This document shows, piece after piece, positions 38,744 through 51,584 of a stretch of DNA of 64,000 nucleotides. Each line of letters opens with the position of its first letter. The first letter of the stretch is position 1. A program made the position numbers and the translations under genes. The notes beneath the pieces are model-generated. The model ran no database searches. It was given only the letters and a program-made list of their open reading frames with translations, and was not told the origin of the DNA. Where the stretch lies: the IMG/VR virus record IMGVR_UViG_3300047560_000724, positions 16,580 through 80,579 of that record. One strand, given 5' to 3'. This DNA is from a virus.

Positions 38744-40153
38744 TTACAGGTCGTAGCGTGGGACCATTACAGTCTTAAGCATAATACCTTCTGGAGTGAA
38801 CTGATCAAGATCAGCACTCAAAAGAGCTGTCATAATGCTTGGGCTGAACCCTGACACCAAAGCAGCTCCTGTCTTGTCTGCCTTAACAGGTACATTGTCT
38901 GAACTGTTTAGGTTCCAGAAAACAATCTGTGGCATTGCATAGCCAGCGGCTTCGAACTTGCGTTCGATCATTTCCATTGCGCTATCGTCGTAACGGGCGC
39001 ATTGGTTGAATTGCATGTCTGACAAGATTAGTAGCATAGCTGGCATATCGCTAGCAGGAACATTTCCCTTAACTGCTGTGCTTAGGATCTTATCCATAGC
39101 GGCATGCAGGTTAGTACTCATTTCCCAGTTGCTACGAGACATTTGGTCAACCTTTTCAACAATGTTACCCTTTAGAGTAACAAGTTGTGGCTTGCTTGAG
39201 AAAGTCAAGAATGTGTCCTTGAACGCACCCTTGTTCTTGTCTGCAAGGTACAAGCCTAGGCTTACGGCTACATCAAGACAACGAACACTAGTGTCACGAC
39301 CTGCTGGGCAAGTCATAGAACCAGATACATCAACTAGAGGTAGGATACTTGCGTTGCCTACATAGTTTGGCAGAGCATCCCATTGTGCGATCACATGGTT
39401 AGTCTCTGTCTTGTCCAAAGTCTTGTAGCCGTGTGCGATGCCCTTTAGGACATCATGTGGGAAGATTGCGTTGGCGTTAACCTTAACAGTCTTATCCCCT
39501 GCCACCAACTTGGCCACATACTCTGCAAACGCAGGTGTGTGACGGTTGAATGCCTTCTTGTATTGGCGAGCCGCTACAGAAGGAACATGGCTAAAGTTGA
39601 TGTTATCCCAATCTCCTGCACACATTTGGGTTTCAACAACCTTTGTAAGTGCCACAAGGCTCTTACGGTATTGCTTTGGAGTCATGCCAAAGAAGGCACG
39701 GATCTCAGCGGCAATCTGACCCTTACGAGGAGTCCACTTTGCAGCCAAACCGTTCTTAGCACGAAGGGCATCGCCCAACATGGTATAAGCGGCTGACTTC
39801 AGAACTGGGTCTGAGAAGACAAAGATGTCATCCCAACGACCAACTTCTGGAACCTTGCGAAGCAAAGCCAAAGCGGCGTCTGGGTCACGCTTTTCTAGAT
39901 GAACTAGAATGTCGCGGAACAGTTGACGCTCACCTGCACCACCACGGACATCTCGTGCCCATTGTGCAATGCGAAGTGCAACATCAGAGTTTTCCACATA
40001 GGCTGCAGTGAAGTCAGCCTTAATATCCTTACCACGGCTTGCGCCGATCTTGTAGAACAAGTCAACACACGCCTTAGCTGTGGACTTACGAGCCTTCATG
40101 CCATTGGCAGTACGGGCTTCTTGATTTGCGATTGCGTTTACAAATGCGTTCAT
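38744..40153 (-). CDS. TROVE/Ro60-like protein with vWA domain (DUF2828 type)
   Basis: Helical N-terminus RDVRGGAGER...GRWDD...AAKW.PR; MIDAS DVSGSM...STN...LSDMQF. Confidence 0.75.
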   Translation of the reverse strand: MNAFVNAIANQEARTANGMKARKSTAKACVDLFYKIGASRGKDIKADFTAAYVENSDVALRIAQWARDVRGGAGERQLFRDILVHLEKRDPDAALALLRKVPEVGRWDDIFVFSDPVLKSAAYTMLGDALRAKNGLAAKWTPRKGQIAAEIRAFFGMTPKQYRKSLVALTKVVETQMCAGDWDNINFSHVPSVAARQYKKAFNRHTPAFAEYVAKLVAGDKTVKVNANAIFPHDVLKGIAHGYKTLDKTETNHVIAQWDALPNYVGNASILPLVDVSGSMTCPAGRDTSVRCLDVAVSLGLYLADKNKGAFKDTFLTFSSKPQLVTLKGNIVEKVDQMSRSNWEMSTNLHAAMDKILSTAVKGNVPASDMPAMLLILSDMQFNQCARYDDSAMEMIERKFEAAGYAMPQIVFWNLNSSDNVPVKADKTGAALVSGFSPSIMTALLSADLDQFTPEGIMLKTVMVPRYDL

Positions 40154-40163
40154 TTTATTACCT

Positions 40164-40220
40164 CACAGAATGTATTGTTTTTCGATATGCTTGAAAATTG
40201 AAAGTTGCTGTTAACATTCT
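40164..40220 (-). ncRNA. Stem-ACAGCAA module copy 1 (5' UTR of Ro60-like gene)
   Basis: AGAATGT-TA-ACAGCAA...ACATTCT-GTG abutting the GAGG SD. Confidence 0.7.
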
Positions 40221-40228
40221 AAAATTCT

Positions 40229-40461
40229 AACAGGATGATTGTGCCAATTTGTTTATTATTCTGGTCTGACCAATTACGGCACTCAGACCCTAACAACAAT
40301 TCATGTTGTCTATCTTGTATTGTGTCTGTACAAGCATCATATTACGGATTCTCCGTACCTATCTATTCCTTCGGCGTCTATTTCTAGAAAGCATTTCTGC
40401 TTGTCCTCCGACCGCCTTCTATAGCTGTAGTCGTAGTAGTTTAAATTGCTGTAGTCATCCT
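40229..40461 (-). ncRNA. Stem-ACAGCAA module copy 2 (233 nt, multi-hairpin insert)
   Basis: AGGATGA-CT-ACAGCAA...TCATCCT-GTT. Confidence 0.7.
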
Positions 40462-40467
40462 ATGACT

Positions 40468-40636
40468 AACAGGATCGTTGTTGACTGCTTTTATTAGACT
40501 CAGGCCATCACTCTGAGCTCGTCCAGGGCATTTCAATAGTTACCTTCAACATACTCGGGCGAACCTCTGTACTCCAATAACTACCATGCACTATCCAGAC
40601 CTTTCATAGTAATATGAATGTTGCTGTGCCGATCCT
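40468..40636 (-). ncRNA. Stem-ACAGCAA module copy 3 (169 nt)
   Basis: AGGATCG-GC-ACAGCAA...CGATCCT-GTT. Confidence 0.7.
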
Positions 40637-40668
40637 AAAACTGTTTGTTAATTGCTTAACATGTATCT

Positions 40669-40697
40669 ATTATAGTACAGATTGTACTTCTTGTCAC
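40669..40697 (-). promoter_or_regulatory. Sigma70-type promoter for modules 1-3 and Ro60-like gene
   Basis: GTGACA-17-TATAAT with upstream TTAGCCAAAA. Confidence 0.7.
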
Positions 40698-40728
40698 TAT
40701 ATTTTGGCTAAATTCGCAAAATATATTT

Positions 40729-40806
40729 TGGAGCAACGGGAGGGATTTGAACCCCCGGTTTTACGGATTTGCAATCCGTTGCATTGGGCCGCTCTGCCAC
40801 CGTTGC
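40729..40806 (-). tRNA. tRNA-Cys(GCA)
   Basis: Cloverleaf, loop TTGCAAA, encoded CCA. Confidence 0.9.
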
Positions 40807-40811
40807 ATATT

Positions 40812-40887
40812 TGGTGGGTCCTGACGGGCTCGAACCGCCGACATTCTGCGTGTAAGGCAGACGCTCTACCAACTGAGCTAAGGACCC
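40812..40887 (-). tRNA. tRNA-Val(TAC), canonical
   Basis: Cloverleaf, loop CTTACAC, CCA. Confidence 0.95.
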
Positions 40888-40894
40888 AAATGCT

Positions 40895-41125
40895 TTACTT
40901 GACTCGCTTCAAGTACTCTTTACCAATCTTACCTTCTTGAATTTCTTCTAAGGCTGTAATGATAGGAAAAATATGTTCTCGCTTAGTGCTTTCTTGATTG
41001 TGTCTTTTGATTTCTCTAGACCTTGCCGCAGCAATTAATACAAGATCAAATCTATTCTCCCCTGCATTAGTAACACACTTGTCAGTGTCAATACCAGTAC
41101 CACGACTATCACTTAGCTTTCTCAT
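40895..41125 (-). CDS. rpoZ: RNA polymerase omega subunit-like
   Basis: NRFDLVLIAAARSREI...TALEEIQEGKI. Confidence 0.8.
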   Translation of the reverse strand: MRKLSDSRGTGIDTDKCVTNAGENRFDLVLIAAARSREIKRHNQESTKREHIFPIITALEEIQEGKIGKEYLKRVK

Positions 41126-41153
41126 ATAATATCCTCTTTGTGTATTTAATACT

Positions 41154-41228
41154 TGGTCCCGTTACCAAGAATCGAACTTGGATCTAATTCTTAGGAGGAA
41201 CTTGTTCTATCCATTGAACTATAACGAG
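41154..41228 (-). tRNA. tRNA-Arg(CCT)
   Basis: Cloverleaf, loop CTCCTAA, CCA. Confidence 0.9.
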
Positions 41229-41229
41229 A

Positions 41230-41319
41230 TGGTCCCCCGTTGAGGAATCGAACCTCATCCTGGACCTTATCTAGATTAAGGTGTTATAAGCACCCCTGCT
41301 CTCCATGAGCTAACGGGGG
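41230..41319 (-). tRNA. Atypical tRNA-Ile(TAT) with long variable region
   Basis: CCCCCGT/ACGGGGG acceptor, loop CTTATAA, about 20-nt variable region. Confidence 0.7.
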
Positions 41320-41326
41320 ATGAAGT

Positions 41327-41400
41327 TGGTTGCGGGTCCCGGAATCGAACCAGGATCTCGAGCTTATGAGACTCGTGAGTTACCGTTTCTCTAACCCGCT
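41327..41400 (-). tRNA. tRNA-Met(CAT) with 1:72 mismatch (initiator-like)
   Basis: Loop CTCATAA, A1xA72; lacks three G-C anticodon-stem pairs. Confidence 0.8.
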
Positions 41401-41406
41401 ATAAAT

Positions 41407-41483
41407 TGGTCGGAGTACAAGGATTCGAACCTTGGACCCCCTGGTCCCAAACCAGGTGCGCTACCAGACTGCGCCACACTCCG
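41407..41483 (-). tRNA. tRNA-Pro(TGG), canonical
   Basis: Loop TTTGGGA, CCA. Confidence 0.95.
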
Positions 41484-41485
41484 AA

Positions 41486-41698
41486 TTAAACTGTTGTTTT
41501 CTTTTTCCTAGTCTTCTTAACTGGAATTTCTGCACTCGCTACACTAGCAATAGCTTCTTGGACATCACGCATAAGGGCTTCGTCGTCCCATATAAGTTCT
41601 GTACTTCCGTCTTCAAATGTCTTAACGGTTAGGTGACTACCTTGATTAATCTTTGGCCATCCGTTAGCTTCTACATTTTTTAATTTCTTAGTCGCCAT
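41486..41698 (-). CDS. Hypothetical protein
   Basis: AAGGA SD, 70 aa between tRNAs. Confidence 0.7.
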   Translation of the reverse strand: MATKKLKNVEANGWPKINQGSHLTVKTFEDGSTELIWDDEALMRDVQEAIASVASAEIPVKKTRKKKTTV

Positions 41699-41716
41699 TT
41701 GCTAGTCCTTAAAATT

Positions 41717-41789
41717 TGGAGCGGGTAGTCGGATTCGAACCGGCTTCTTTAGCTTGGAAGGCTAAGTCCTCTCCCAGGAGAATACCCGC
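41717..41789 (-). tRNA. tRNA-Gly(TCC), atypical D arm
   Basis: Loop CTTCCAA, U73, CCA. Confidence 0.85.
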
Positions 41790-41992
41790 ATAGTGTTTAG
41801 CTACTCCCACCACAGGAGCCCTAAACTGAGCTGTTACTCTGTCCACTAGCCTTTCCATCTAGACGGTGCTGAGGTCCGCCTTTGTGATTTCTCAAGTCGC
41901 TTTACACAAGCCTTGCGGTAGATCCAATGCACCGAGCTATTAAGGTTTAAGCAATTACCTAACTCTATTACGCTGAGTTAACGCGGGGTTTT
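41790..41992 (-). ncRNA. Unassigned structured intergenic RNA candidate
   Basis: About 200 nt, relatively GC-rich, no ORF in the track, several hairpins between tRNAs. Confidence 0.4.
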
Positions 41993-42068
41993 TGGTGCCC
42001 CTTGTCCGACTCGAACAGACCACCTACTGATTACAAATCAGTTGCTCTACCAGATGAGCTAAAGGGGC
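41993..42068 (-). tRNA. tRNA-Thr(TGT), canonical
   Basis: Loop TTTGTAA, CCA. Confidence 0.93.
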
Positions 42069-42074
42069 GTATTG

Positions 42075-42335
42075 TTATTTAATTTCGTTACCTGCTAGGT
42101 CTGCTTTTCCAGTCTCATAAAGTTCTTTGCGTCTTGCAAATTCATCTTCACTTAAACCGTGCCAACCAATACACTTGCCAGTTGGGCTACGGCCACACCC
42201 GCATCTTCCAACTTCGTCTATATTTTCTTTTACTCTTACTTGCATATCTTTATCTTTTTTAAAAATTGCATCCCAGTTACTATCAAATGTAGTTAATGGA
42301 ACACTTAACGGTCTTGCTTTACTGCCTTTACCCAT
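42075..42335 (-). CDS. CDGSH-type Fe-S/zinc-finger protein
   Basis: CGCGRSPTGKCIGWH; AGGAG SD before MGKG. Confidence 0.7.
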   Translation of the reverse strand: MGKGSKARPLSVPLTTFDSNWDAIFKKDKDMQVRVKENIDEVGRCGCGRSPTGKCIGWHGLSEDEFARRKELYETGKADLAGNEIK

Positions 42336-42363
42336 TAGATAATCTCCTGTGTGTTTGGTGGAC

Positions 42364-42750
42364 TTATCGTTTAAGTCCCCTTGCCTGTCTGCCCTTACCT
42401 TTATTCTTAGCAACAAATGTATCTGTTTGACTATGGCAGTTTGGACACAACAGTCTTAAATTTTTTGGCTTATCATTACCTGCATCACCGTCTATATGAT
42501 CTAATTGTAGCACTAAAGGTACATCGTTGTAAACCCCTTCATTGCCACAACTTACACATCTATAACCATGCAAGTGTGTTAAGCATCTTATTAAAGTTCT
42601 TCTTGTAGAAATTTCGCCTTTTAAAAACTTAGACAAAGTTTCTGTTTCAAATTGATGTTGCTGCTGACAAGTGTTATTACAATACTTGTTTGCATAATTC
42701 CTTTTTACAGGATTCTCTTTACCGCAACATAAACAATTGAATGTATTCAT
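42364..42750 (-). CDS. HNH endonuclease (free-standing, homing-type)
   Basis: LQLDHIDG...N....NLRLLCPNCHSQT; N-terminal Cys finger. Confidence 0.9.
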   Translation of the reverse strand: MNTFNCLCCGKENPVKRNYANKYCNNTCQQQHQFETETLSKFLKGEISTRRTLIRCLTHLHGYRCVSCGNEGVYNDVPLVLQLDHIDGDAGNDKPKNLRLLCPNCHSQTDTFVAKNKGKGRQARGLKR

Positions 42751-42790
42751 AATGTAGTCCTCTACATTATTTATACAGAACTCTACATTT

Positions 42791-43471
42791 TTAAAGAACT
42801 TTGGTGGAGGTAACAGGGATCGAACCTGCGACATTTTGGTTGCAAACCAAACGCTCTCCCAGCTGAGCTATACCCCCGAATAACGCTTTTTTAGCATCAT
42901 CAAAATAAACAGCGCCTGGATTAACATCTCTTAATGTTAGCACCATTCTTTCATTTTTTGATTTGCTGTTATCAAAATCGTGAAAAATTTCTGTATTAAA
43001 AAGAATACACTCGCCCTGTTGTGCGGTCATACGCTTTAATGGAGTATGTTTTTTAGAATCAAATCCTAAACATTCTCTACTTTGTTTCCTTTCAATAGGA
43101 TCAGGATCAATTGGGTATTCTTTTAACTCTTCATCGGAATACCAACTTGTAACACAATCGTTATCAAGAATCTTAACTGTATAATTAAGACTGTAGCGAT
43201 GGTCTAACCCGTCCTTATGTGCTCTATAATAATATCCTGGCTGTGTTGTAAACAACGACACTCGCCATTGATTTAATTTTAGTTCTTCATTCAATGGTAT
43301 ACTATCCATAATATCTTTTGCTTGTGCTGTAGGATATATGTGATGTGTAAATCCTTTTGTAAAGGACATACCCCATACATACGCCAGGCATTTAGTTATT
43401 ACAGTATCTAGTCCTTCGTGTGTAAAACGAATATAGTACGGACTACAGTCTTCTATTATAGTATACTTCAT
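42791..43471 (-). CDS. 2OG-Fe(II) oxygenase/cupin-like protein reading through tRNA-Ala
   Basis: AHKD...FH.F.N...ER.VLT.R. Confidence 0.7.
   Translation of the reverse strand: MKYTIIEDCSPYYIRFTHEGLDTVITKCLAYVWGMSFTKGFTHHIYPTAQAKDIMDSIPLNEELKLNQWRVSLFTTQPGYYYRAHKDGLDHRYSLNYTVKILDNDCVTSWYSDEELKEYPIDPDPIERKQSRECLGFDSKKHTPLKRMTAQQGECILFNTEIFHDFDNSKSKNERMVLTLRDVNPGAVYFDDAKKALFGGIAQLGERLVCNQNVAGSIPVTSTKVL
42802..42877 (-). tRNA. tRNA-Ala(TGC), canonical
   Basis: G3:U70, loop TTTGCAA, CCA. Confidence 0.95.
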
Positions 43472-43481
43472 TGTATATTTA

Positions 43482-43558
43482 TGGCTCCCCGAGCTGGGCT
43501 CGAACCAGCGACACCTTGATTAACAGTCAAGTGCTTCTACCAACTGAGCTATCAGGGA
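43482..43558 (-). tRNA. tRNA-Asn(GTT), canonical
   Basis: Loop CTGTTAA, G73, CCA. Confidence 0.93.
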
Positions 43559-43564
43559 ATATTC

Positions 43565-44014
43565 TCATATCTCTTTATGTAGCCTATAAAATTTAGGGTA
43601 CATACCGACCTTGGCCGCTGATGCTAAACGACTCTTGTTGTTTACTTCAACAAGACTACTTAACATATAAGCGCCTAATTTTTTACAATCTGCCTCGTAG
43701 TACTCGTGGCAAATTTGATTTAATCCTCTTCCTCGGAATTCTGGTTCAGTAAAACTAAGAACTAACCAGCCCATTCGTTGATCTGGATAGTATTCATAAG
43801 CAATACCGCCTTGAACATTACCACTAGTATCTTGCACCCAAACAACTCTGTTTGAAATCTTAAATGCAAAAGTGGGTAATGAAAACCCTTTATCAACAAG
43901 TTCAGCCCAAACTTTTAAAAACGGAGCAACAACTGGAGTATATTGCATCGTATCCGATTGCCAAACTTCAATTGGGTTACCTAGCTTGTCTTGAGCATCT
44001 GCTATCTTCTTCAT
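43565..44014 (-). CDS. GNAT-family acetyltransferase
   Basis: FTEPEFRGRGL...N..R...AKVG. Confidence 0.8.
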   Translation of the reverse strand: MKKIADAQDKLGNPIEVWQSDTMQYTPVVAPFLKVWAELVDKGFSLPTFAFKISNRVVWVQDTSGNVQGGIAYEYYPDQRMGWLVLSFTEPEFRGRGLNQICHEYYEADCKKLGAYMLSSLVEVNNKSRLASAAKVGMYPKFYRLHKEI

Positions 44015-44055
44015 ACTTACACCTTTAAAAATGTAAATTACTTATCACTACTAAT

Positions 44056-44149
44056 TGGCGGTGAGCGAGAGATTCGAACTCTCGATGCAGGTTTATGCCC
44101 ACATGCCTCCTTAGCAGGGAGGTACCTTCGGCCACTCGGTCAGCTCACC
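44056..44149 (-). tRNA. tRNA-Ser(GCT)
   Basis: Long variable arm, loop CTGCTAA, G73. Confidence 0.95.
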
Positions 44150-44150
44150 A

Positions 44151-44352
44151 TTAGTTGTATTGTCTTGTTATGGACAACAATAACCCTATTGCCGTTTGCT
44201 TTTAACGAGCACAACTTGTATGAGTCCTCCTGCAGAAGGTTGTCTCACTTTCATTATGCATCAACAGTATTGGCCGCGCTAGCTAGACGGAGGACCCATT
44301 GACTGTGCATTACCCAGGTGTACACTGAGTTTTTCCAAAACAATACAACTAA
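44151..44352 (-). ncRNA. Unassigned 200-nt RNA closed by a long perfect stem
   Basis: TTAGTTGTATTGT/ACAATACAACTAA. Confidence 0.55.
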
Positions 44353-44437
44353 TGGTGGACAGGGACGGATTCGAACCATCGTAGCCTGAGGCGGCAGATT
44401 TACAGTCTGCTGGTATTAACCACTCACCCACCTGTCC
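44353..44437 (-). tRNA. tRNA-Tyr(GTA), canonical
   Basis: Loop CTGTAAA, variable arm, CCA. Confidence 0.95.
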
Positions 44438-44443
44438 ATTGTT

Positions 44444-44528
44444 TGGTGCGACCTCCCGGAATCGAACCGGGACGACTTTCGTCGAGAGATTTTAAGTCTC
44501 TTGTGTCTACCTATTTCACCAAGGTCGC
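44444..44528 (-). tRNA. tRNA-Leu(TAA)
   Basis: Loop CTTAAAA, variable arm. Confidence 0.95.
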
Positions 44529-44533
44529 ATATC

Positions 44534-44761
44534 TTACTGACTTCTGCGCTTCATCCAAGTGTAGTCTACACCGTCTGGACACTTTCCGTCATTAACGCTG
44601 TCAGCACCAAAGATGCCAACAATTTCCATTTCGTTACCTTTTATAGTAACAAATTCATTCATGTGCTTTGCAAGGTTCATTGCTTCTGCAAGTGTAAGAA
44701 CCTTAAATGTTTCTTCTTTACCTATTACTTTATACATTGTTAATTTTACTTTCTTTTTCAC
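44534..44761 (-). CDS. Hypothetical protein
   Basis: ORF between tRNAs; start uncertain. Confidence 0.6.
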   Translation of the reverse strand: MKKKVKLTMYKVIGKEETFKVLTLAEAMNLAKHMNEFVTIKGNEMEIVGIFGADSVNDGKCPDGVDYTWMKRRSQ

Positions 44762-44787
44762 TCATCACAACAATGACGACAATTAAA

Positions 44788-44861
44788 TGGCGTACCCCCA
44801 GGGACTCGAACCCCGACCGACAGTTTTGGAGACTGTAATGCTGCCATTACACTAGGGATAC
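44788..44861 (-). tRNA. tRNA-Trp(CCA)
   Basis: Loop CTCCAAA, G73. Confidence 0.9.
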
Positions 44862-44868
44862 ATGTCCT

Positions 44869-44960
44869 TGGCGGAAGCTGAGAGATTCGAACTCTCGGAC
44901 GGGATAAACCGTCGGCAGTTTTCAAGACTGCTGCAATAAACCGGACTCTGCCAAACTTCC
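44869..44960 (-). tRNA. tRNA-Ser(TGA)
   Basis: Loop CTTGAAA, long variable arm. Confidence 0.95.
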
Positions 44961-44965
44961 ATTAT

Positions 44966-45048
44966 TGGTGCCCCCTCCGAGACTCGAACTCGGACGCTCT
45001 CGCACTGGCTTCTAAGACCAGCGTGTCTACCAATTCCACCAAAGGGGC
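44966..45048 (-). tRNA. tRNA-Leu(TAG)
   Basis: Loop CTTAGAA. Confidence 0.95.
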
Positions 45049-45057
45049 ATAATTCTT

Positions 45058-45153
45058 TACCATATAGAAACACACTAGCGGGCATATCTAGGTTGCCGCT
45101 TATCGCACCTTAGTCCTAGTACTGAGTATAGGCTAGTGCATTTTTATATGGTA
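45058..45153 (-). repeat. Family-B stem element copy 1
   Basis: Plus-strand ACCATATAGAAACACACT...TATATGGT closing stem. Confidence 0.65.
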
Positions 45154-45224
45154 CTCGGTAGGGGAATCGAACCCCTCTTCCCGCCGTGAAAGGGCGGTGT
45201 CCTAGACCGATAGACGAACCGAGC
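45149..45224 (-). tRNA. tRNA-Glu(TTC), canonical
   Basis: Loop CTTTCAC. Confidence 0.95.
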
Positions 45225-45284
45225 AAATTAACCGTTAAATTTTTAATGAACAATTATACTACTGTGTTAACAGCGTATGTATCT

Positions 45285-45313
45285 ATTATATAGCCTACCA
45301 AGCATTGTGTCAA
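45285..45313 (-). promoter_or_regulatory. Internal sigma70 promoter of the distal tRNA block, with a boxA-like element
   Basis: TTGACA-17-TATAAT; TGTTCATTAAAA at 45241-45252. Confidence 0.75.
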
Positions 45314-45344
45314 TACTTTTTTGGCTAACAATGCAAATATATTT

Positions 45345-45419
45345 TGGCCGGGCTTAGAGGAATCGAACCTCTACCTGCGGTTTCGAAGACCGTAATGATA
45401 TCCATTTCACCAAAGCCCG
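45345..45419 (-). tRNA. tRNA-Arg(TCG)
   Basis: Loop CTTCGAA. Confidence 0.85.
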
Positions 45420-45432
45420 CAATAAATATTCT

Positions 45433-45975
45433 GTGAAAAATTATTATCCAATACTAGTTGACAATTTAGAATCATTAAGGGAAAAAGTACTTGCCAATCT
45501 TCCTGAACGAGTTTTTAACTTTACTGCCGTTACTTACGACCATGCACTTGCTTATAACATAGCAAGACTACCCGAAGTAGTTTCTGCACTCGAACAGTTT
45601 GGAGGTATTAAACAAATTGAGTCAATTGCGTTTAATGTAACACCACCTAACCGTACTGGGAAGATACATACCGACACTGGCGGATATGCTTACACTTTTA
45701 ATATTCCATTATTAAATTTTAGAAACACATTCTTACGGTTACACAGGAAAACTAAAGAACCTATTTCTAAAACTTATAAAGATCCGCAAGGTAATGATAT
45801 CAATTATCACTTATACAATAAAACAAACTGTGTGTTAGATCAAACAATAGAAACGCTTGAACCACATATATTTAATACAACAGTTCCACATCAAGTAGTT
45901 AATCCTAACGATACTATCAGAATTAATATGCTGATTAGATTGAAGTTAGATACTGACTTTAGTAAATTTAATTAA
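45433..45975 (+). CDS. 2OG-Fe(II) oxygenase/cupin-like protein, antisense to the array
   Basis: IHTD...FNTTVPHQV.N...R. Confidence 0.7.
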   Translation: MKNYYPILVDNLESLREKVLANLPERVFNFTAVTYDHALAYNIARLPEVVSALEQFGGIKQIESIAFNVTPPNRTGKIHTDTGGYAYTFNIPLLNFRNTFLRLHRKTKEPISKTYKDPQGNDINYHLYNKTNCVLDQTIETLEPHIFNTTVPHQVVNPNDTIRINMLIRLKLDTDFSKFN

Positions 45976-45976
45976 C

Positions 45977-46051
45977 TGGCACCGCGAGTTGGATTCGAAC
46001 CAACATCTTACACTTTAGAAGAGTGTTGCCTATCCCTTAGACTATCGCGGT
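45977..46051 (-). tRNA. tRNA-Arg(TCT)
   Basis: Loop CTTCTAA. Confidence 0.9.
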
Positions 46052-46052
46052 A

Positions 46053-46126
46053 TGGTGCTCTTAGATAGAATCGAACTATCATTACCTCCATACCAAAGAG
46101 GCGTTCTACCATTTAACTATAAGAGC
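46053..46126 (-). tRNA. tRNA-Thr(GGT)
   Basis: Loop TTGGTAT. Confidence 0.85.
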
Positions 46127-46128
46127 AA

Positions 46129-46207
46129 TGGTACCCCTGCTCCGATTCGAACGGAGAACAACTTCTCCTTTTGAGAGAGACGACTTTACCAATTTGTCCA
46201 CAGGGGC
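46129..46207 (-). tRNA. tRNA-Leu(CAA) with short variable region
   Basis: Loop CTCAAAA, 7-nt variable region. Confidence 0.85.
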
Positions 46208-46264
46208 ATAGAATTTGTCTTAGATTGTTCACCGCACAATCTAAGAAAGCGGGGGTCTGTTGAA

Positions 46265-46477
46265 TTTGTAAGTAGTTCCCCCATCGTTATAGGAACCATT
46301 CACCCGTGTAATTAAGCCGGCCGGGACTCGGTACGCCACTAGGGATACTAGTCCAGTTTAGCAACCTGTTTGCAACCGTCCTTCCGGGCGGCCGGGAGTT
46401 GAACCCGCAACCTTCTACTATTTCGGTCCTTCGAAGAAACCTAGATAGCGTGACATTCTCTTGCTGACACTTACAAA
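46265..46477 (-). ncRNA. Unassigned 213-nt RNA, possible divergent stem-CAGCAA module
   Basis: Closing stem TTTGTAAGT/ACTTACAAA, then GT-CAGCAA; T-arm-like GGG TTCAACT CCC. Confidence 0.55.
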
Positions 46478-46482
46478 ACTGT

Positions 46483-46558
46483 TGGGGTGCTAGATGGGGA
46501 ACGATCCCATACTATCGCTTTCACAGAGCGAGGTGCAGACCACTACACTACTAACACC
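46483..46558 (-). tRNA. tRNA-His(GTG) with encoded G-1
   Basis: Loop CTGTGAA, C73; atypical T loop ATCGTTC. Confidence 0.85.
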
Positions 46559-46566
46559 ATAGAAAA

Positions 46567-46684
46567 AACAGGATACATTTTATAGCGCACTACCAATTGT
46601 GCTAACTTGGCATGAAGCCAAATGTTGGACTCGAACCAACAACCTCTCGCTTAGAAGGCGAAAATTGTTTGCTGTTAGTATCCT
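46567..46684 (-). ncRNA. Stem-ACAGCAA module copy 4 carrying circularly permuted tRNA-Arg(TCT)
   Basis: Order anticodon arm, T arm, loop-closed 7-bp acceptor, D arm inside AGGATAC/GTATCCT. Confidence 0.85.
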
Positions 46685-46689
46685 AAACT

Positions 46690-46765
46690 TGGAGCGGGAG
46701 ACGAGGTTCGAACTCGCGACATTTACCTTGGCAAGGTAATGCTCTACCAACTGAGCTACTCCCGC
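46690..46765 (-). tRNA. tRNA-Gly(GCC)
   Basis: Loop TTGCCAA. Confidence 0.95.
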
Positions 46766-46773
46766 ATGAGACT

Positions 46774-46850
46774 TGGCGCGGTGGACGGGGCTCGAACCCG
46801 CGACCCTTGGCGTGACAGGCCAATACTCTGACCAACTGAGCTACCACCGC
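46774..46850 (-). tRNA. tRNA-Asp(GTC), canonical
   Basis: Loop CTGTCAC. Confidence 0.95.
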
Positions 46851-46873
46851 GTAATTTTAATTATCTTTTATTT

Positions 46874-46947
46874 TGGTTCCTCCAACAAGAATCGAACTTG
46901 TAATGACCGGTTATCAGCCGATTGTTATACCATTTAACTATAGAGGA
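46874..46947 (-). tRNA. tRNA-Ile(GAT)
   Basis: Loop CTGATAA. Confidence 0.88.
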
Positions 46948-46953
46948 ATAATT

Positions 46954-47028
46954 TGGTGGTGATGAGTAGAGTCGAACTACCACCAGACTCCGTATGAAGG
47001 AGGCGCACTACCATTATGCTACATCACC
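46954..47028 (-). tRNA. tRNA(CAT), Met or Ile2
   Basis: Loop TTCATAC. Confidence 0.8.
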
Positions 47029-47121
47029 ATATAGAAACACACTCGTGCCTTTTTCGTCAGAGGAAGGTGGCCTTTCCCAGTACCCGGACTATGTCCGGTG
47101 TCGAATATGTTTTCATATGGT
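47026..47121 (-). repeat. Family-B stem element copy 2
   Basis: Same 18-mer and closing stem. Confidence 0.65.
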
Positions 47122-47123
47122 AA

Positions 47124-47211
47124 TACCATATAGAAACACACTGGCTTGCAAGACTTCTACTAACCTTTCGATGGATGTCGCAGTTAGTATTCAATGTGTT
47201 TTTATATGGTA
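47124..47211 (-). repeat. Family-B stem element copy 3
   Basis: Same 18-mer and closing stem. Confidence 0.65.
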
Positions 47212-47280
47212 GGGGCACAGAGAATCGAACTCTGATTAATAGGTTAAAAGCCTACTACTTTGCCGTTAAGTTATACCCCC
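47207..47280 (-). tRNA. tRNA-Lys(TTT)
   Basis: Loop CTTTTAA. Confidence 0.9.
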
Positions 47281-47283
47281 GTA

Positions 47284-47358
47284 TGGTCCACGCTCTGAGA
47301 ATCGAACTCAGTTCCTCCGGGTAAGAGCCGGTTACTTCGCCACTAAAGTTTAGCGTGG
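47284..47358 (-). tRNA. tRNA-Lys(CTT)
   Basis: Loop CTCTTAC. Confidence 0.85.
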
Positions 47359-47419
47359 TTGGTCGTAATTAAATTGATTTAATGTGCCAACCAGGACCAA
47401 TACGGGGTCAAGGTCGACA

Positions 47420-47440
47420 CTAGCGTTTACCGCGTTTCAT
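47420..47440 (-). other. Minigene MKRGKR* followed by a hairpin
   Basis: AAGGAG SD, ATG AAA CGC GGT AAA CGC TAG; stem 47384-47420. Confidence 0.5.
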
Positions 47441-47470
47441 GTCGTTCTCCTTTTGAACATTGTTGAAATA

Positions 47471-47535
47471 AACAGGATGTATTTTTACGGTTTTGATTAA
47501 AAGTCAAATGTATAAATTTTTGCTGTTAACATCCT
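47471..47535 (-). ncRNA. Stem-ACAGCAA module copy 5 carrying isolated Lys(UUU) anticodon stem-loop
   Basis: AGGATGT/ACATCCT enclosing TTTGA CTTTTAA TCAAA. Confidence 0.8.
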
Positions 47536-47540
47536 TAACT

Positions 47541-47614
47541 TGGTGCTCCATCGAGGAATCGAACCCCAATTGCCGGACTACAAAACCGGTGTCTTACCAT
47601 TAAACGAATGGAGC
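47541..47614 (-). tRNA. tRNA-Thr(TGT), variant copy
   Basis: U31xU39, loop TTTGTAG. Confidence 0.8.
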
Positions 47615-47621
47615 AAATTTA

Positions 47622-47737
47622 AACAGGATAGAATTTAACATAGTGCTACCGTTACACCAAACCTTTCGGCTGCGGAGTCGAACCGCTCCCTTACTTTTCA
47701 AGAGTAGTGAGTTAATTATTTTTGCTGTTACTATCCT
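47622..47737 (-). ncRNA. Stem-ACAGCAA module copy 6 carrying permuted tRNA mimic with Ser(UGA) loop
   Basis: TACT CTTGAAA AGTA, GCGG TTCGACT CCGC, AGCC GAAA GGTT, D-arm-like GTGTAACGGTAGCAC. Confidence 0.8.
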
Positions 47738-47741
47738 TAAC

Positions 47742-47815
47742 TGGTACCTCGTTACAGAATCGAACTGTCATCAACGGTATGTAACACCGTGGTTCTGCCA
47801 TTAAACTACCGAGGC
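47742..47815 (-). tRNA. tRNA-Val(TAC), variant copy
   Basis: Loop GTTACAT (G32, U38). Confidence 0.8.
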
Positions 47816-47821
47816 ATAAAT

Positions 47822-47897
47822 TGGTCTCCCTACCAGGATTCGAACCTGGACCACACGGCCCCAAACCGTGTACGCAACCTGATAACGCTTTAGAGAG
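47822..47897 (-). tRNA. tRNA-Pro(TGG), variant copy
   Basis: Loop TTTGGGG, A8. Confidence 0.8.
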
Positions 47898-48053
47898 ATA
47901 AAGGTTGGGCGCCACACTATCCTCCTGGGAGGACTCGCATGATTGTCTCGAATAGTCAAGTCTAATACCACTCCTAACCGTTCTTGCGCTGTCACATAGC
48001 TGAGTCACTATGCTAGGTTGGGTGGGACTCTAAACTACCGTCTATCCCGAAAT

Positions 48054-48128
48054 TGGTGGAGGCCGAGGGAGTTGAACCCTTCTAGTCAGCAACCTTGCAA
48101 GGGTTACCCGTAGCCCGCTACTGCCCCC
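48054..48128 (-). tRNA. tRNA-Ala(TGC)-like, aberrant D arm
   Basis: G3:U70, 7-bp anticodon stem, loop CTTGCAA, D region GTAGCGGGCTAC. Confidence 0.7.
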
Positions 48129-48138
48129 AAATTCTTTT

Positions 48139-48215
48139 TGGCACCCGAGGAAGGATTCGAACCTCCGACTCCAATGTTCGTAGCATTGTACTCTAGTCCA
48201 CTGAGTTACACGGGT
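48139..48215 (-). tRNA. tRNA-Arg(ACG)
   Basis: Loop CTACGAA. Confidence 0.9.
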
Positions 48216-48300
48216 ATAAATTAGTGTTAGTTTCTATACCACCCATTGAAACTAACAAACATTGAGAAGCCATGCATCAAAACAAGACTTCTATTTGCCC

Positions 48301-48376
48301 TGGTGCCGCCTCTAGGGATCGAACCTAGTTCCACGGTGCTTCAAACCGGTGCTATGACCACATCAGCTAAAGCGGC
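48301..48376 (-). tRNA. tRNA-Phe(GAA)
   Basis: Loop TTGAAGC. Confidence 0.85.
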
Positions 48377-48380
48377 AAAT

Positions 48381-48455
48381 TGGCGCCACGGACGAGAATC
48401 GAACTCGCCTTAGTCGGATAGACAATCCGTTGCCCTCCCAGAGAACTACCGTGGC
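48381..48455 (-). tRNA. tRNA-Asp(GTC), variant copy
   Basis: Loop TTGTCTA (U37). Confidence 0.8.
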
Positions 48456-48501
48456 ATATAAGTCTACACATCCTGCCTCTATGAGGCAGGGGTAGCATAG
48501 T

Positions 48502-48577
48502 TGGTATCGCGGACGGGAATCGAACCCGCCTAGTCAAGTTGAAAGCCTGATGACCTAACCCAGAAGTCCACCGCGAT
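48502..48577 (-). tRNA. tRNA-Glu(TTC), variant copy
   Basis: Loop CTTTCAA. Confidence 0.85.
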
Positions 48578-48583
48578 ATAATA

Positions 48584-48642
48584 AACAGGATACATTCTTT
48601 TTCACCATTTGAAAGTTGATTAAGATTTGCTGTTAGTATCCT
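48584..48642 (-). ncRNA. Stem-ACAGCAA module copy 7 carrying Glu(UUC)-like anticodon loop
   Basis: AGGATAC/GTATCCT enclosing ATCA-A-CTTTCAA-A-TGGT. Confidence 0.75.
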
Positions 48643-48647
48643 TAAAC

Positions 48648-48721
48648 TGGCACCCGGACTAGGGATCGAACCTAGACTAACAGAGTCAAAGTCTGTTGTG
48701 CTACCATTACACAATCCGGGA
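48648..48721 (-). tRNA. tRNA-Gln(TTG)
   Basis: Loop CTTTGAC, G73. Confidence 0.9.
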
Positions 48722-48899
48722 ATAAATATTTGTGTGAAGACTTATAATCACATAACCCCACAGGGATTATACTTTCATCTTTGCTTGTACGAAGGTGTGT
48801 GCTGTGTCATGGTACAAGATGTATATGATAACACTTACTTTGAACTGCAATACTTCACAGATGTCAACAAAGCCTTACGCTTTATCAACAACTTGTAAT

Positions 48900-48978
48900 T
48901 GGCTCCGTGTGTGAGGATCGAACTCACCTAATCACTGATTAACAGTCAGGTCCTTGCACCATGCTTGGATTTCACGGA
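48900..48978 (-). tRNA. tRNA-Asn(GTT), variant copy
   Basis: Loop CTGTTAA; atypical D region. Confidence 0.75.
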
Positions 48979-48987
48979 ATAGAATTT

Positions 48988-49076
48988 TGGTGGACCTTGA
49001 TAGAATCGAACTACTTGCCAGCCACCCCACTTAACAATGGCCACCGGGTTACAGCCGGCGATGGGGAACAAGATCC
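48988..49076 (-). tRNA. D-armless tRNA-Tyr(GTA)-like RNA
   Basis: 8-bp acceptor/4-bp T stem, loop CTGTAAC, CCCCAT can pair with variable-loop GTGGGG. Confidence 0.7.
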
Positions 49077-49099
49077 ATAACACACTCTTTAGAATGTGT

Positions 49100-49343
49100 G
49101 TATTAAAGTACACTTGATTAAGGAATTCCGGACTAGGCGCTAGCACCGTCTGCTAGATCGTCTGCCTTCATCATTACTGCCTACATACTCCGCCGCTTCT
49201 CTGAGCATTTCTGCTCGGCTTCATGACCTGGACTAGACTAGTATCCGTCGATACTACAATCTTCCCAGAGCCCTAACGGTGTAGGTAACCTTAACCTCCA
49301 TATACGGCGTGGAGCCATATACGAATAAAGTATACTTTAATAC
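49100..49343 (-). ncRNA. Unassigned 244-nt RNA closed by long stem
   Basis: GTATTAAAGTA/TACTTTAATAC enclosing several hairpins. Confidence 0.55.
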
Positions 49344-49454
49344 GCTGTAATTTTTCACCCCACAAAAGGAGCTTCATCCTACAGGCCGCCCATTTGCCCA
49401 TGTTTTAAGTGCGGGCTAGGATCTCGTTTCCTATACACACTTTTTCGAAAGTCT

Positions 49455-49491
49455 TAAAAGCAAAACCCCAGGGTGTTTAGTCCTGGGGTCC
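49455..49491 (-). terminator. Attenuator terminator upstream of the tRNA array
   Basis: GACCCCAGG/CCTGGGGTT followed by TTGCTTTT. Confidence 0.75.
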
Positions 49492-49513
49492 TTTGGGTAA
49501 AATTGTGTAGTGT

Positions 49514-49660
49514 TTAGTTACACGATCCTCCACTGGACCCCGGGGTAATCCCCTCTGGTGTGCGATCATATGACAGACTATTAATCGCTAACCAAGAGGT
49601 GGGCATCACGCCTGCCTGTTTGGCTATCGTATTAAAATGTTGTCTATTAAATGATTGCAT
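49514..49660 (-). CDS. 48-aa leader peptide containing all 20 amino acids
   Basis: MQSFNRQHFNTIAKQAGVMPTSWLAINSLSYDRTPEGITPGSSGGSCN*, read manually. Confidence 0.65.
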   Translation of the reverse strand: MQSFNRQHFNTIAKQAGVMPTSWLAINSLSYDRTPEGITPGSSGGSCN

Positions 49661-49720
49661 TTTAGTTTCTCTTTAAATCCTTTGTTGCTAACAAGCACCA
49701 TTGCTTGCTAACTAGTCTCT

Positions 49721-49933
49721 ATTGTAGCACCTTCCGGTGCTCCTGTCAACAACTTTTGGAAAATTCTTTTGTTGTATTTTTACAACGCTTTGAAAGTTAC
49801 ATTGTTTGCTAACTTGTTTCTATTGTACAGTTATTTAGTTCTGTTGTCAACCTGGTTTTGCATTTTTGGCAAAAAGATTTACACCAACTATCTAACTAGT
49901 CTCTATTGTACTGTATATATGTCGTTGTGTCAA
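49721..49933 (-). promoter_or_regulatory. Three tandem sigma70 promoters
   Basis: TTGACA-17-TACAAT at 49749-49721, 49850-49822 and 49933-49905. Confidence 0.85.
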
Positions 49934-49977
49934 GACCGGTGTGATAATGTGGCTTTTTTGCCACTTTTTGAAAAATG

Positions 49978-50463
49978 TTAACTTTCTACTACACCGACTA
50001 GGTGCAAGCGGGCCTGCTCGGAACAATTCATGAAAGTATGTAGTTTGCGTGTGTCAGTCCAGTAAACTGAGTCAACACTCAAGTGTTGTGGTGCGGAATC
50101 CTTAAACACAAAGTAACAGTTAGGGTTGGTCACTAACGGAATGTGAACCCTTGGTGTTTCATCCCTGTGCATACTGTAACAAGCATAAGGGCCAACCCAC
50201 ATGAGTCTTGTTCTTAGCAGCCGGTACTTAGTGATTAGCTCTTCAAAGACTGTGCCCTTAAAGAAAGGATTTAGCTCAGTGTAACTAGTTTCGTTGCCCT
50301 TACTTCTGCCGACCGCACTCGTCCACGCATCTTCACCTAGTTTAAACTGAAGGCCACATTGTTTACCCTTGTGGCCATAGTCAGTCCATTGTATATCTAA
50401 TTCAAGATCAGTGTACTTTGTTAAGATAGCAGAAGAACTTATACTATCTAATACTTTGATCAT
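49978..50463 (-). CDS. Asp/Asn beta-hydroxylase-like 2OG-Fe(II) oxygenase
   Basis: HRD..PRVHIPL.TN...H.F.N....RLHLV. Confidence 0.8.
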   Translation of the reverse strand: MIKVLDSISSSAILTKYTDLELDIQWTDYGHKGKQCGLQFKLGEDAWTSAVGRSKGNETSYTELNPFFKGTVFEELITKYRLLRTRLMWVGPYACYSMHRDETPRVHIPLVTNPNCYFVFKDSAPQHLSVDSVYWTDTRKLHTFMNCSEQARLHLVGVVES

Positions 50464-51584
50464 GAACGACCAATTCTTGACGGAATTGCTTTAACTTGTG
50501 CCCCAGTATTTGTTTGGTAGGCAATTAATGCGTTTTCATGCGGAGTGGTTAGGTAACTTACTAGTTCCGGAATTGTCAGTACCACGGCTTGACTGTCAGA
50601 ACTTCCTTGTGCAGCCTTTTGGATCATTTTATAGTAAATGCCCTTGCGTGTTTTAACATCATCGTAAATTTCTTCAAAACCAGTATACTTTCTAGCTTGG
50701 ATAATCTCAGGCCAGTTCTTAACAGTCATCATAGGTTTGTAGAACTGTTGAAACAAACTCCACCAGCGGTACGGGTGCTTGATGTTGTTACAGAACACTT
50801 CATAAATTTGCTCTTGTACTGCATAAAAGCGTTGACAAACATCGTCTGTAAGATATGACACAGTTAGTTCTGGAGTATACAAGAAATACTTACTAGTACC
50901 TTCGTAGCCTTGTTCCATCATGTGTCGCATAATAGGTTGTGGTGTTTGGATCCATACAGGTACTGTTGCTCCGTTAGCCATCCGTGGTAAACGCTTAGAA
51001 ACATAATCTGGGCTAATTGGTTGCATCATTGGGTCACCCCCGCCCATGATGTAGCAAAAATCCTGACCAACAAAGTCCATTGTAGCACATTGTACTAAGG
51101 TAGCTAAGTTTGTAAACCCGTATTTTCCTGCGTAACGCTGTGCAAGCCCGCGATAATATGCATCTAAATTAATTGTAAATTGAATGCTTTCGATTCCGTA
51201 TCTGCGGCAAAACTCATAAGCTGTTTTAATATCATGCTCGTTGATCAGTTCGTTAGCAACATCAAACATATGAACAATAACAACCTTAAATGGGACTTTT
51301 GCTTCCATGAGGCTCAAACAAACCATTTGGCTATCACTACCACCGCTGAGGCCAACAATGATCGGTTTTGTTGCTTTATTAGCGATTAGACTAGCGGCAT
51401 GAATACATTCTTCACGGAATGATTTAACTTCGCGAGTAGTATGTCCTAATTGCAATTTAAATGTTCTCGAAGGATCTGGGTCATTGTACCATTCGTCTTG
51501 GTTAGATACATGGTCCTCGTATGGATCCACTCCCCATCCCCATTTAAAATGGTTGCCTTCTGTATAGTCGAATTTTAATTCCAT
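50460..51584 (-). CDS. PP-loop ATP pyrophosphatase-like, group 2
   Basis: LSGGSDS; paralog of 51604 and 55815. Confidence 0.7.
   Translation of the reverse strand: MELKFDYTEGNHFKWGWGVDPYEDHVSNQDEWYNDPDPSRTFKLQLGHTTREVKSFREECIHAASLIANKATKPIIVGLSGGSDSQMVCLSLMEAKVPFKVVIVHMFDVANELINEHDIKTAYEFCRRYGIESIQFTINLDAYYRGLAQRYAGKYGFTNLATLVQCATMDFVGQDFCYIMGGGDPMMQPISPDYVSKRLPRMANGATVPVWIQTPQPIMRHMMEQGYEGTSKYFLYTPELTVSYLTDDVCQRFYAVQEQIYEVFCNNIKHPYRWWSLFQQFYKPMMTVKNWPEIIQARKYTGFEEIYDDVKTRKGIYYKMIQKAAQGSSDSQAVVLTIPELVSYLTTPHENALIAYQTNTGAQVKAIPSRIGRS

Follow-up and report, generated by a model that had tools for sequence, protein, structure and literature searches.

Phage tRNA genes are usually seen as constitutive cargo, kept for codon usage or to replace tRNAs that are destroyed in infection or by host defences. 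Control of transcription by the translation of a leader peptide is known from bacterial attenuators, and the classical ones need runs of regulatory codons for sensitivity (PMC1183508). In the whiB7 attenuator a diverse upstream open reading frame (uORF) senses many amino acids, a single Trp codon being sufficient for Trp sensing, and the uORF of M. smegmatis contains every amino acid but Cys (PMC10274678). No description of leader-peptide control of tRNA genes was found in the literature searched. Here we analyse a 64,000-nucleotide (nt) stretch of viral DNA (IMG/VR record IMGVR_UViG_3300047560_000724, positions 16,580 to 80,579; hereafter the window), in which a short leader open reading frame (ORF) precedes a large tRNA array. 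From its sequence and that of its relatives, the unit is probably a ribosome-mediated transcription attenuator that heads a phage non-coding RNA (ncRNA)/tRNA operon, with a leader peptide that is kept complete for the 20 amino acids.

The window is part of an 80.6-kb record judged 21% complete, and its source is hence a giant phage. On the minus strand we find, in this order, three promoters, a 5′ hairpin, a purine-rich Shine-Dalgarno (SD)-like stretch, the leader ORF, a C/A-rich spacer, a terminator, an ncRNA-like region and the tRNA genes (Table 1). The original prediction, made from the window alone, described the leader as 48 codons encoding every amino acid with 37 different codons, ATA, AGA, CCC, GGG, TCG and ACG included, and our recount gave the same figures. 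Such a diversity, as had been supposed, lies above background: in 12,707 48-codon windows from the long ORFs of the phage itself the mean number of distinct codons was 28.9 ± 2.7, at least 37 were reached in 0.09%, and all 20 amino acids were present in 3.0%. A peptide of this sequence, written in the codon usage of the phage, would be expected to show 32.4 ± 1.8 distinct codons (P = 0.01 for the observed 37). Several rare codons (GGG, CCG, TCC) fall within G+C-rich RNA helices, and we therefore give the codon-diversity excess little independent weight.

Relatives were collected by a peptide search (22 viral contigs, 55–87% identity), a search with the core DNA motif (23 contigs, five of them new), a metagenome scan (131 stretches confirmed, 80 kept for analysis) and a neighbouring-gene search, which added four homologues. 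The unit was present in 114 related loci, always heading a tRNA array and always as one copy per contig, even in contigs of 326 and 353 kb. A tRNA array begins 300–1200 nt downstream of it in 21 of the 22 loci with enough DNA, so that the proposed tie between leader and tRNA array extends to the relatives, where the first tRNA after the leader is usually tRNA-Tyr. No prokaryotic genome was found to carry the unit: 17 pattern matches in 185,579 species genomes gave 0 confirmed cases, and a cellular origin was rejected. In more distant phages the upstream hydroxylase-like gene is present with only a four-tRNA cluster; the leader is absent and the promoter leads straight into the tRNAs.

The leader ORF is conserved as such. 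All complete related loci (105/105) share an invariant ATG and an open frame of 43–55 codons, with indels that are in frame and, upstream of the tail, multiples of three, in agreement with a real ORF as first proposed. Over 60 distinct peptides, the ratio of non-synonymous to synonymous changes (pN/pS) was 0.85 for codons 2–22, 0.19 for codons 23–36 and 0.98 for the tail. In the middle part, hereafter the core, the codon of Leu24 varies between TTA, CTC, CTG and CTA, and L29, S30, R33 and P35 vary at the third position only, a synonymous switching that looks like the signature of translation. The leader is thus probably translated. In the C-terminal tail, the reading frame shifts between relatives while the nucleotides stay conserved. 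That the unit would be a non-coding structured RNA, a small RNA or a processing signal, with the ORF as a mere by-product, is in our opinion scarcely credible. Such an RNA would account for the strong fold (z = −6.1), for the nucleotide-level conservation in core and tail and for the weakness of the SD-like sequence; it accounts neither for the ATG and frame kept in all complete loci, with indels in multiples of three upstream of the tail, nor for the Leu24 TTA/CTC switch and the third-position changes, nor for a stop codon always found at the apex of a stem-loop. Rfam, at E ≤ 1, gave no match for the leader, nor for the 700 nt that follow it.

We then examined the RNA elements around the end of the ORF. 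The motif GGGGTCC (49541–49535; the third base of codon 40 and all of codons 41 and 42) is perfectly complementary to GGACCCC (49491–49485), exactly as had been noticed, and the downstream hairpin is also found as described, with arms GACCCCAGG and CCTGGGGTT followed by TTGCTTTT and ending at 49456. Its 5′ arm overlaps the 3′ strand of the first pairing, so that the two helices exclude each other. Since the window has only a single copy of the terminator sequence, a generic repeated terminator was ruled out. The GGGGTCC/GGACCCC pairing had been viewed as a lone 7-base-pair (bp) helix of borderline occlusion geometry, its strand ending shortly before the stop codon. This does not hold: the helix is the base of a 57-nt stem-loop with the stop codon at its apex (Table 1), and a ribosome must melt the whole 5′ half of this stem-loop before reaching the stop. 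Folded alone, 49/49 distinct elements gave one common stem-loop of three helices, in which the stop lies in the apical loop or beside it, 14–27 nt after the 5′ basal strand and 17–32 nt before the 3′ basal strand, while the apical helix takes different forms by subfamily (GUGUA/UACAC, GGUUAAG/CUUAA, UUACG/CGUAA and GUUAC/GUAAC).

Covariation argues for both helices. In an alignment of 54 sequences, the basal antiterminator helix was paired in 378/378 cells, with compensatory double changes at 4 of its 7 pairs (25 cells; for example GGGCUU/AAGCCC, GGGUUC/GAACCC, GGGUCU/AGACCC and AGGGUCC/GGACCCU). None of 500 shuffles reached the observed covariation, and slid registers were 14–68% paired. The pairing first seen in the window is thus retained in related phages through compensatory changes. 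The nucleotides of the GGGUCC motif are themselves retained though the frame across them differs (GITPGSS versus EITRVREGWDG). The terminator stem was paired in 99.6% of cells. One position, column 112 of the alignment (C or U in ACCC(C/U)AGG), belongs to both structures: with column 33 in the antiterminator it forms GC in 33 sequences, AU in 13 and GU in 8, and with column 128 in the terminator CG in 33, UG in 19 and UA in 2. Since it covaries with the one and pairs with the other, it provides direct evidence for two alternative partners. Similarly, the inner halves of the stem-loop paired better with their own partner (−10.5 kcal/mol) than with those of other relatives (−7.8 kcal/mol), a difference reached in 0/5000 permutations.

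The isolated elements had mean energies of −23.7 kcal/mol for the stem-loop and −14.7 kcal/mol for the terminator. The resulting advantage of 9 kcal/mol for the antiterminator applies to isolated elements only and was discarded, the two being near equal in context: there the mean difference was −1.9 kcal/mol in favour of the antiterminator, which was favoured in 41 of 53 sequences. For the window in context we obtained −27.1 kcal/mol in the antiterminator state and −27.6 kcal/mol in the terminator state; the minimum free energy (MFE) fold of this sub-fragment is the terminator state, and that of the full-length leader contains the antiterminator (fold z = −6.1). With a ribosome placed on the stop codon and the RNA behind it left out of the calculation, the terminator formed in 53/53 sequences. 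These nearly isoenergetic states should match a kinetic switch, in which the upstream structure forms first unless a ribosome sits on it.

A model can be drawn from these elements. Three strong promoters would fire into the 48-codon ORF, the last third of which is the 5′ half of the antiterminator, with a 3′ foot, GGACCCC, that doubles as the 5′ arm of the terminator. A prompt ribosome would reach the stop and unwind the antiterminator; GGACCCCAGG would be freed to pair with CCUGGGGUU, and transcription would end at about 49456. With a ribosome that is absent, late or stalled before about codon 38, the antiterminator would fold first and stay, giving read-through into the ncRNAs and 37 tRNA genes. 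Possible causes of the delay are the lack of a charged tRNA, the cleavage of a tRNA or general damage to translation. Because the leader has every amino acid, the shortage of almost any one of them could be sensed, and decoding capacity would feed back negatively on the supply of phage tRNAs. We placed the presumed boundary at codon 38 by the textbook point at which a ribosome unwinds mRNA, about +11 from its P site. Within codons 1–38, the putative sensing part, the window leader carries 19 amino acids, Cys being absent.

The composition of the leader peptides was examined next. Among the distinct peptides (43–55 residues), 52/60 hold all 20 amino acids and 8/60 hold 19, Val being absent in 7 and Cys in 1; with an alternative choice of start codons the count is 51/59. 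The part upstream of the antiterminator (38.7 codons on average) is itself complete in 46 of 55 distinct leaders, against a background of 0.56% for 38-codon windows, and the window leader is the single case where completeness needs the tail. To take descent into account, we ran 2000 simulations in which the tree as well as the branch and column of 448 inferred changes were fixed and the new residues redrawn. Complete leaves numbered 8.6 ± 4.8 with family frequencies and 7.8 ± 4.5 with BLOSUM, where 52 are observed (P<0.0005). Even with redraws limited to residues of the same column, 27.4 ± 6.7 leaves were complete, with a maximum of 49 in 2000 runs. Relatedness alone fails to explain completeness, and composition rather than sequence is under selection. 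The earlier expectation of a diversity conserved despite peptide divergence is therefore borne out, the flanks of the core being nearly neutral.

Individual residues illustrate the same behaviour. Those present only once relocate within the peptide, over 8 alignment columns for Cys, 6 for His, 8 for Val and 4 for Tyr. Tyr31 was lost in 14 peptides, and 14/14 of these have a Tyr elsewhere, compared with a second Tyr in 19 of the 46 peptides that kept it (Fisher P = 9e-5, uncorrected for phylogeny). Two relatives, L020 and L054, differ by little more than a Tyr swap (PSSW...LSYD versus PSYW...LSND).

The same observations bear on a simpler proposal: the ORF would be a plain gene for a small protein, complete with promoter and terminator and placed ahead of the array by chance, the stem-loop serving mRNA stability or translation termination and the 20-amino-acid content being inherited from a single ancestor. 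The unit is indeed self-contained, its core is under purifying selection, and in some relatives a 58-codon ORF rather than a tRNA lies directly after the terminator. But two thirds of the peptide evolve at pN/pS 0.85–0.98, the tail changes frame with its nucleotides conserved, and inheritance alone cannot yield 52/60 complete peptides. Moreover, the 3′ foot of the stem-loop is common to the terminator and covaries with both partners, and no unit was seen apart from a tRNA array, nor in the 185,579 prokaryotic species genomes. We regard this proposal as very unlikely.

The core (codons 23–36; Table 1) behaves differently from its flanks. No change occurs at W23, A25–S30, D32, R33 or E36 across 21 diverged sequences, and the codons GCG, ATT, AAT, AGT, GAT, ACA and GAG are almost never swapped synonymously (GCG in 59/60, AAT in 60/60 and GAT in 60/60). 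The nearly frozen synonymous sites point to an additional constraint at the nucleotide level. A candidate hairpin lies within the core, clear of the antiterminator strand, and may provide pause-hairpin synchronisation of RNA polymerase and ribosome. As none of its pairs changes, covariation speaks neither for it nor against it, and we rejected the hairpin as evidence.

This core could also act as a nascent peptide in the exit tunnel, as in TnaC, SecM or SpeFL. The ribosome would stall when Pro35 occupies the P site and Glu36 the A site, the trigger would be a small molecule or a state of the ribosome, and the parked ribosome would front the antiterminator and cause read-through. Such an arrest, which could coexist with the sensing of hungry codons, is either the main rival of the attenuator model or an addition to it; as a replacement we hold it to be unlikely. 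The contrast between the pN/pS of 0.19 in the core and the nearly neutral flanks speaks for it, together with the ten positions invariant in the 21 diverged sequences. The 5′ strand of the antiterminator starts about 5–11 nt past the Glu codon in 55/55 leaders (gaps derived by hand), and a ribosome stalled as described would just abut the helix. Also, the W-to-P spacing of 12 in the core equals that of E. coli TnaC (W12...P24). Conversely, an arrest leaves unexplained the set of 20 amino acids and the relocation of Cys, His, Val and Tyr, and the frozen synonymous sites point to a constraint on the RNA, for example through the candidate hairpin, and not on the peptide alone. The peptide showed no similarity to any Pfam family. 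Finally, Asn27 occupies the position of the essential Asp16 of TnaC, and Pro35 is followed by a sense codon, not a stop.

Attenuation by the translating ribosome, which we prefer, has to face several observations that weigh against it. Most amino acids occur only once to three times in the leaders and without runs, so that the switch may respond only to a severe loss. One amino acid, mostly Val, is missing from eight of the 60 leaders, and one of these (L009) has no Val though a tRNA-Val gene lies downstream. In the window leader the sole Cys is codon 47, on the 5′ strand of the antiterminator, where a stall should favour termination; Cys is hence probably unsensed and this copy probably responds to no more than 19 amino acids. 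The G+C-rich helices account for part of the excess of distinct codons. Sampling of the tRNA pool does not explain a 14-residue core that is invariant in protein and largely so in nucleotides, and the candidate pause hairpin has no covariation to support it. An anti-antiterminator, equivalent to the 1:2 hairpin of trp or otherwise protecting the 5′ foot by capture, was not found in the leader; unlike in trp, an untranslated RNA should therefore read through by default. Lastly, the unit was found in no cultured phage when 50,697 phage records, a set that may lack near-identical ones, were searched with the leader (blastn) and with the peptide and the neighbouring 374-amino-acid protein (tblastn). 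The initial idea that the leader samples the tRNA pool and gates the array thus stands as to conservation, completeness and pairing, and falls short for the Cys of the window and for the invariant core.

A broader version would make the leader a universal sensor of tRNA damage and decoding speed. Loss of any tRNA species, to a defence nuclease or to decay driven by infection, would turn on replacement tRNAs together with tRNA-like and Y-RNA-like RNAs, and the core would set the timing as a pause hairpin, an arrest module or both. We put this forward tentatively, as a possibility that we find somewhat improbable; a link of the switch to host anticodon nucleases is speculation. If the broader version were true, the virus would encode a homeostat of translation capacity and a natural reporter peptide for all 20 amino acids. 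The attenuator model itself predicts that omission of Cys should induce the leader of L003, with Cys at codon 23, and not that of the window.

Table 1. Features of the leader locus and of the downstream array in the window
Feature	Coordinates	Strand	Description or support
Promoter 1	49905..49933	-	sigma-70-type, TTGACA-17-TACAAT; 11/12 matches
Promoter 2	49822..49850	-	sigma-70-type, TTGACA-17-TACAAT; 11/12 matches
Promoter 3, closest to leader	49721..49749	-	TTGACA-17-TACAAT plus extended -10 TG; 11/12 matches
Hairpin at 5′ end of leader transcript	49687..49712	-	11-bp stem, MFE fold
Weak purine-rich SD-like AAAGAG	49669..49674	-	sequence; 8 nt 5′ of ATG
Leader ORF, 48 codons + TAA	49514..49660	-	peptide MQSFNRQHFNTIAKQAGVMPTSWLAINSLSYDRTPEGITPGSSGGSCN; all 20 amino acids, 37 distinct codons
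Putative sensing part, codons 1–38	49547..49660	-	boundary set by presumed ribosome unwinding point
Invariant core, codons 23–36	49553..49594	-	WLAINSLSYDRTPE (WLAINSLSxDRTPE); pN/pS 0.19, pS 0.24
Candidate hairpin within core, GCGAUUA/UGAUCGC	49562..49588	-	possible RNA polymerase pause hairpin; RNAalifold consensus
Antiterminator stem-loop, 57 nt	49485..49541	-	basal GGGGUCC/GGACCCC, middle helix, apical GUGUA/UACAC; folding and covariation
Stop codon TAA	49514..49516	-	in antiterminator apical loop; folds
Predicted intrinsic terminator	49456..49490	-	GACCCCAGG, 9-nt loop, CCUGGGGUU, then UUGCUUUU; 9-bp G+C-rich stem and U-run
Gated non-tRNA RNA region, ~700 nt	48722..49455	-	terminator to first standard tRNA; no Rfam match
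tRNA-Tyr-like gene within gated region	~48988-49076	-	
Gated array, 37 tRNA genes	40729..48721	-	all 20 amino acids; all on leader's strand

The three promoters and the modest SD announced for the leader were both found (Table 1). In 22 relatives a single promoter is conserved, and promoter 3 is the one that aligns with it. The triple tandem arrangement (TTGACA-17-TAYAAT three times, spaced by ~85–100 nt) is kept in three relatives (L025:4556-4770, L027:6996-7210 and L032:6531-6750), and a short hairpin-like stretch follows each copy in the window (49721–49933) and in these relatives. At the position of the 5′ hairpin, the sequences of relatives differ yet are self-complementary (judged by eye, uncounted). 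A purine-rich stretch (AAGGA, GAGA or GGAAAG) lies 5–14 nt 5′ of the ATG in 60/60 distinct leaders.

We also compared four RNA-library runs with positions 48700–49950, using Logan contigs, which carry no ends, strand or level. One contig from an RNA library, of 208 nt, was 100% identical to 49436–49641, which comprises the leader and terminator, and a contig from a second metatranscriptome library was 100% identical to 49127–49323, in the gated RNA region. The first passes the U-run by only 19 nt and was for this reason not counted as bridging the terminator. These contigs hint weakly at natural transcription of leader and gated region, DNA carry-over being possible.

Directly behind the terminator, at 49380–49427 on the minus strand, lies a conserved structured RNA that is also present after the terminators of L005, L009, L012 and L024. 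It consists of GTAACGAGGACC..., a covarying hairpin (GCCC/GGGC, ACAGC/GCTGT, GCTC/GAGC, GTCC/GGAC) with a conserved loop CGCACTWTAAACAT, and then AAACGGGCGG. It had no Rfam match and may be another AGGAT-stem module of the array. In about half of the viral relatives (L011, L013, L014 and L017–L023; for instance L020:3186-3362), a 58-codon ORF (MEQIDYSKLNERIVEQAYEAAL...) replaces it between the terminator and tRNA-Tyr, and in these phages the attenuator would also gate a small protein gene. One relative encodes a permuted transfer-messenger RNA (L008:1175-1606, ARAGORN) with the tag ANANTFKYMQVDVALNDDAFALAA, ~1.4 kb upstream of its leader, and in another tRNA array a match to the Rfam tRNA-Sec model (L012:5218-5302) scored 45.9 bits, for a gathering score of 47.

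Upstream of the promoters, two minus-strand genes (49978–50463 and 50460–51584) encode an Asp/Asn beta-hydroxylase-like protein (PF05118, E 6.6e-5) and a PP-loop/NAD-synthase-like ATPase (PF02540, E 1.9e-5), respectively. The hydroxylase-like gene stays beside the tRNA region even in the leaderless phages (L028–L034). The Ro60/TROVE-like gene that an earlier note linked to Y-RNA-like modules lies at the far end of the tRNA array (38744–40153, minus strand); its 469-amino-acid product gives a full-length match to PHROG 850, 'RNA-binding protein' (E 3e-143).

In a large clade of giant freshwater phages, as this element suggests, the tRNA array would be regulated by a direct measure of decoding speed. 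If so, attenuation would extend from the biosynthesis of single amino acids to the global control of tRNA supply, and the element would be a compact natural sensor for a shortage of any charged tRNA, usable in synthetic biology.

How does this unit compare with known systems? Of the features of an attenuator, it has the 5′ leader ORF, the predicted intrinsic terminator and an exclusive antiterminator overlapped by the translated region. Absent is the enrichment in codons for cognate amino acid(s), which sets the phage unit apart as a variant. A T-box riboswitch was rejected, there being no Rfam match at E ≤ 1 over 40000–50500 and none at E ≤ 0.01 in four related loci. With TnaC, SecM and SpeFL the phage unit has in common a short leader and a conserved motif that may function in the exit tunnel. 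TnaC has W-x3-D-x7-P directly before a stop, and its termination is Rho-dependent; in the phage, Glu and a further 12 codons come after Pro35, and the predicted terminator is of the intrinsic type.

Like the phage unit, trpL, hisL, pheL, thrL and ilvL combine a short leader ORF with alternative hairpins that have a common strand, and the terminator is favoured once a ribosome has come to the stop or close to it (textbook knowledge; PMC1183508). In them, codons for one to three cognate amino acids stand in runs, and when translation fails a 1:2 protector hairpin brings about termination. By contrast, the phage leader has no runs, all 20 amino acids, no protector that we could find, and a stop inside the antiterminator rather than before it. 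The leaders of bmrB-bmrCD, vmlR and msrD are alike in that a stall from whatever cause disables a downstream terminator, making them general sensors of impaired elongation (PMC4191407, PMC9226507). They differ in responding to drug-bound ribosomes, in controlling resistance genes and in having compositionally incomplete peptides. The trn operon of Anabaena PCC 7120 resembles the controlled genes: it is a supernumerary, horizontally spread tRNA array whose expression is low until translation is impaired (PMC8421152, PMC10272220). There the repressor TrcR binds direct repeats of the promoter, and the words leader, attenuation and terminator have 0 occurrences in either of the two papers.

Of the known systems, the nearest is whiB7 (wblC) of mycobacteria, where a long diverse uORF precedes an intrinsic terminator and a competing antiterminator, efficient uORF translation leads to termination and translation stress to read-through (PMC10274678), as we suppose for the phage. 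The two have no sequence relation. The whiB7 uORF is Ala-enriched and varies in amino-acid content, whereas the phage leader keeps its completeness, and the target of whiB7 control is a transcription factor, that of the viral element a phage tRNA/ncRNA array. By analogy, the phage unit would thus work like the whiB7 attenuator and yet stand outside that family, with a peptide that has no Pfam match and with tRNAs downstream.

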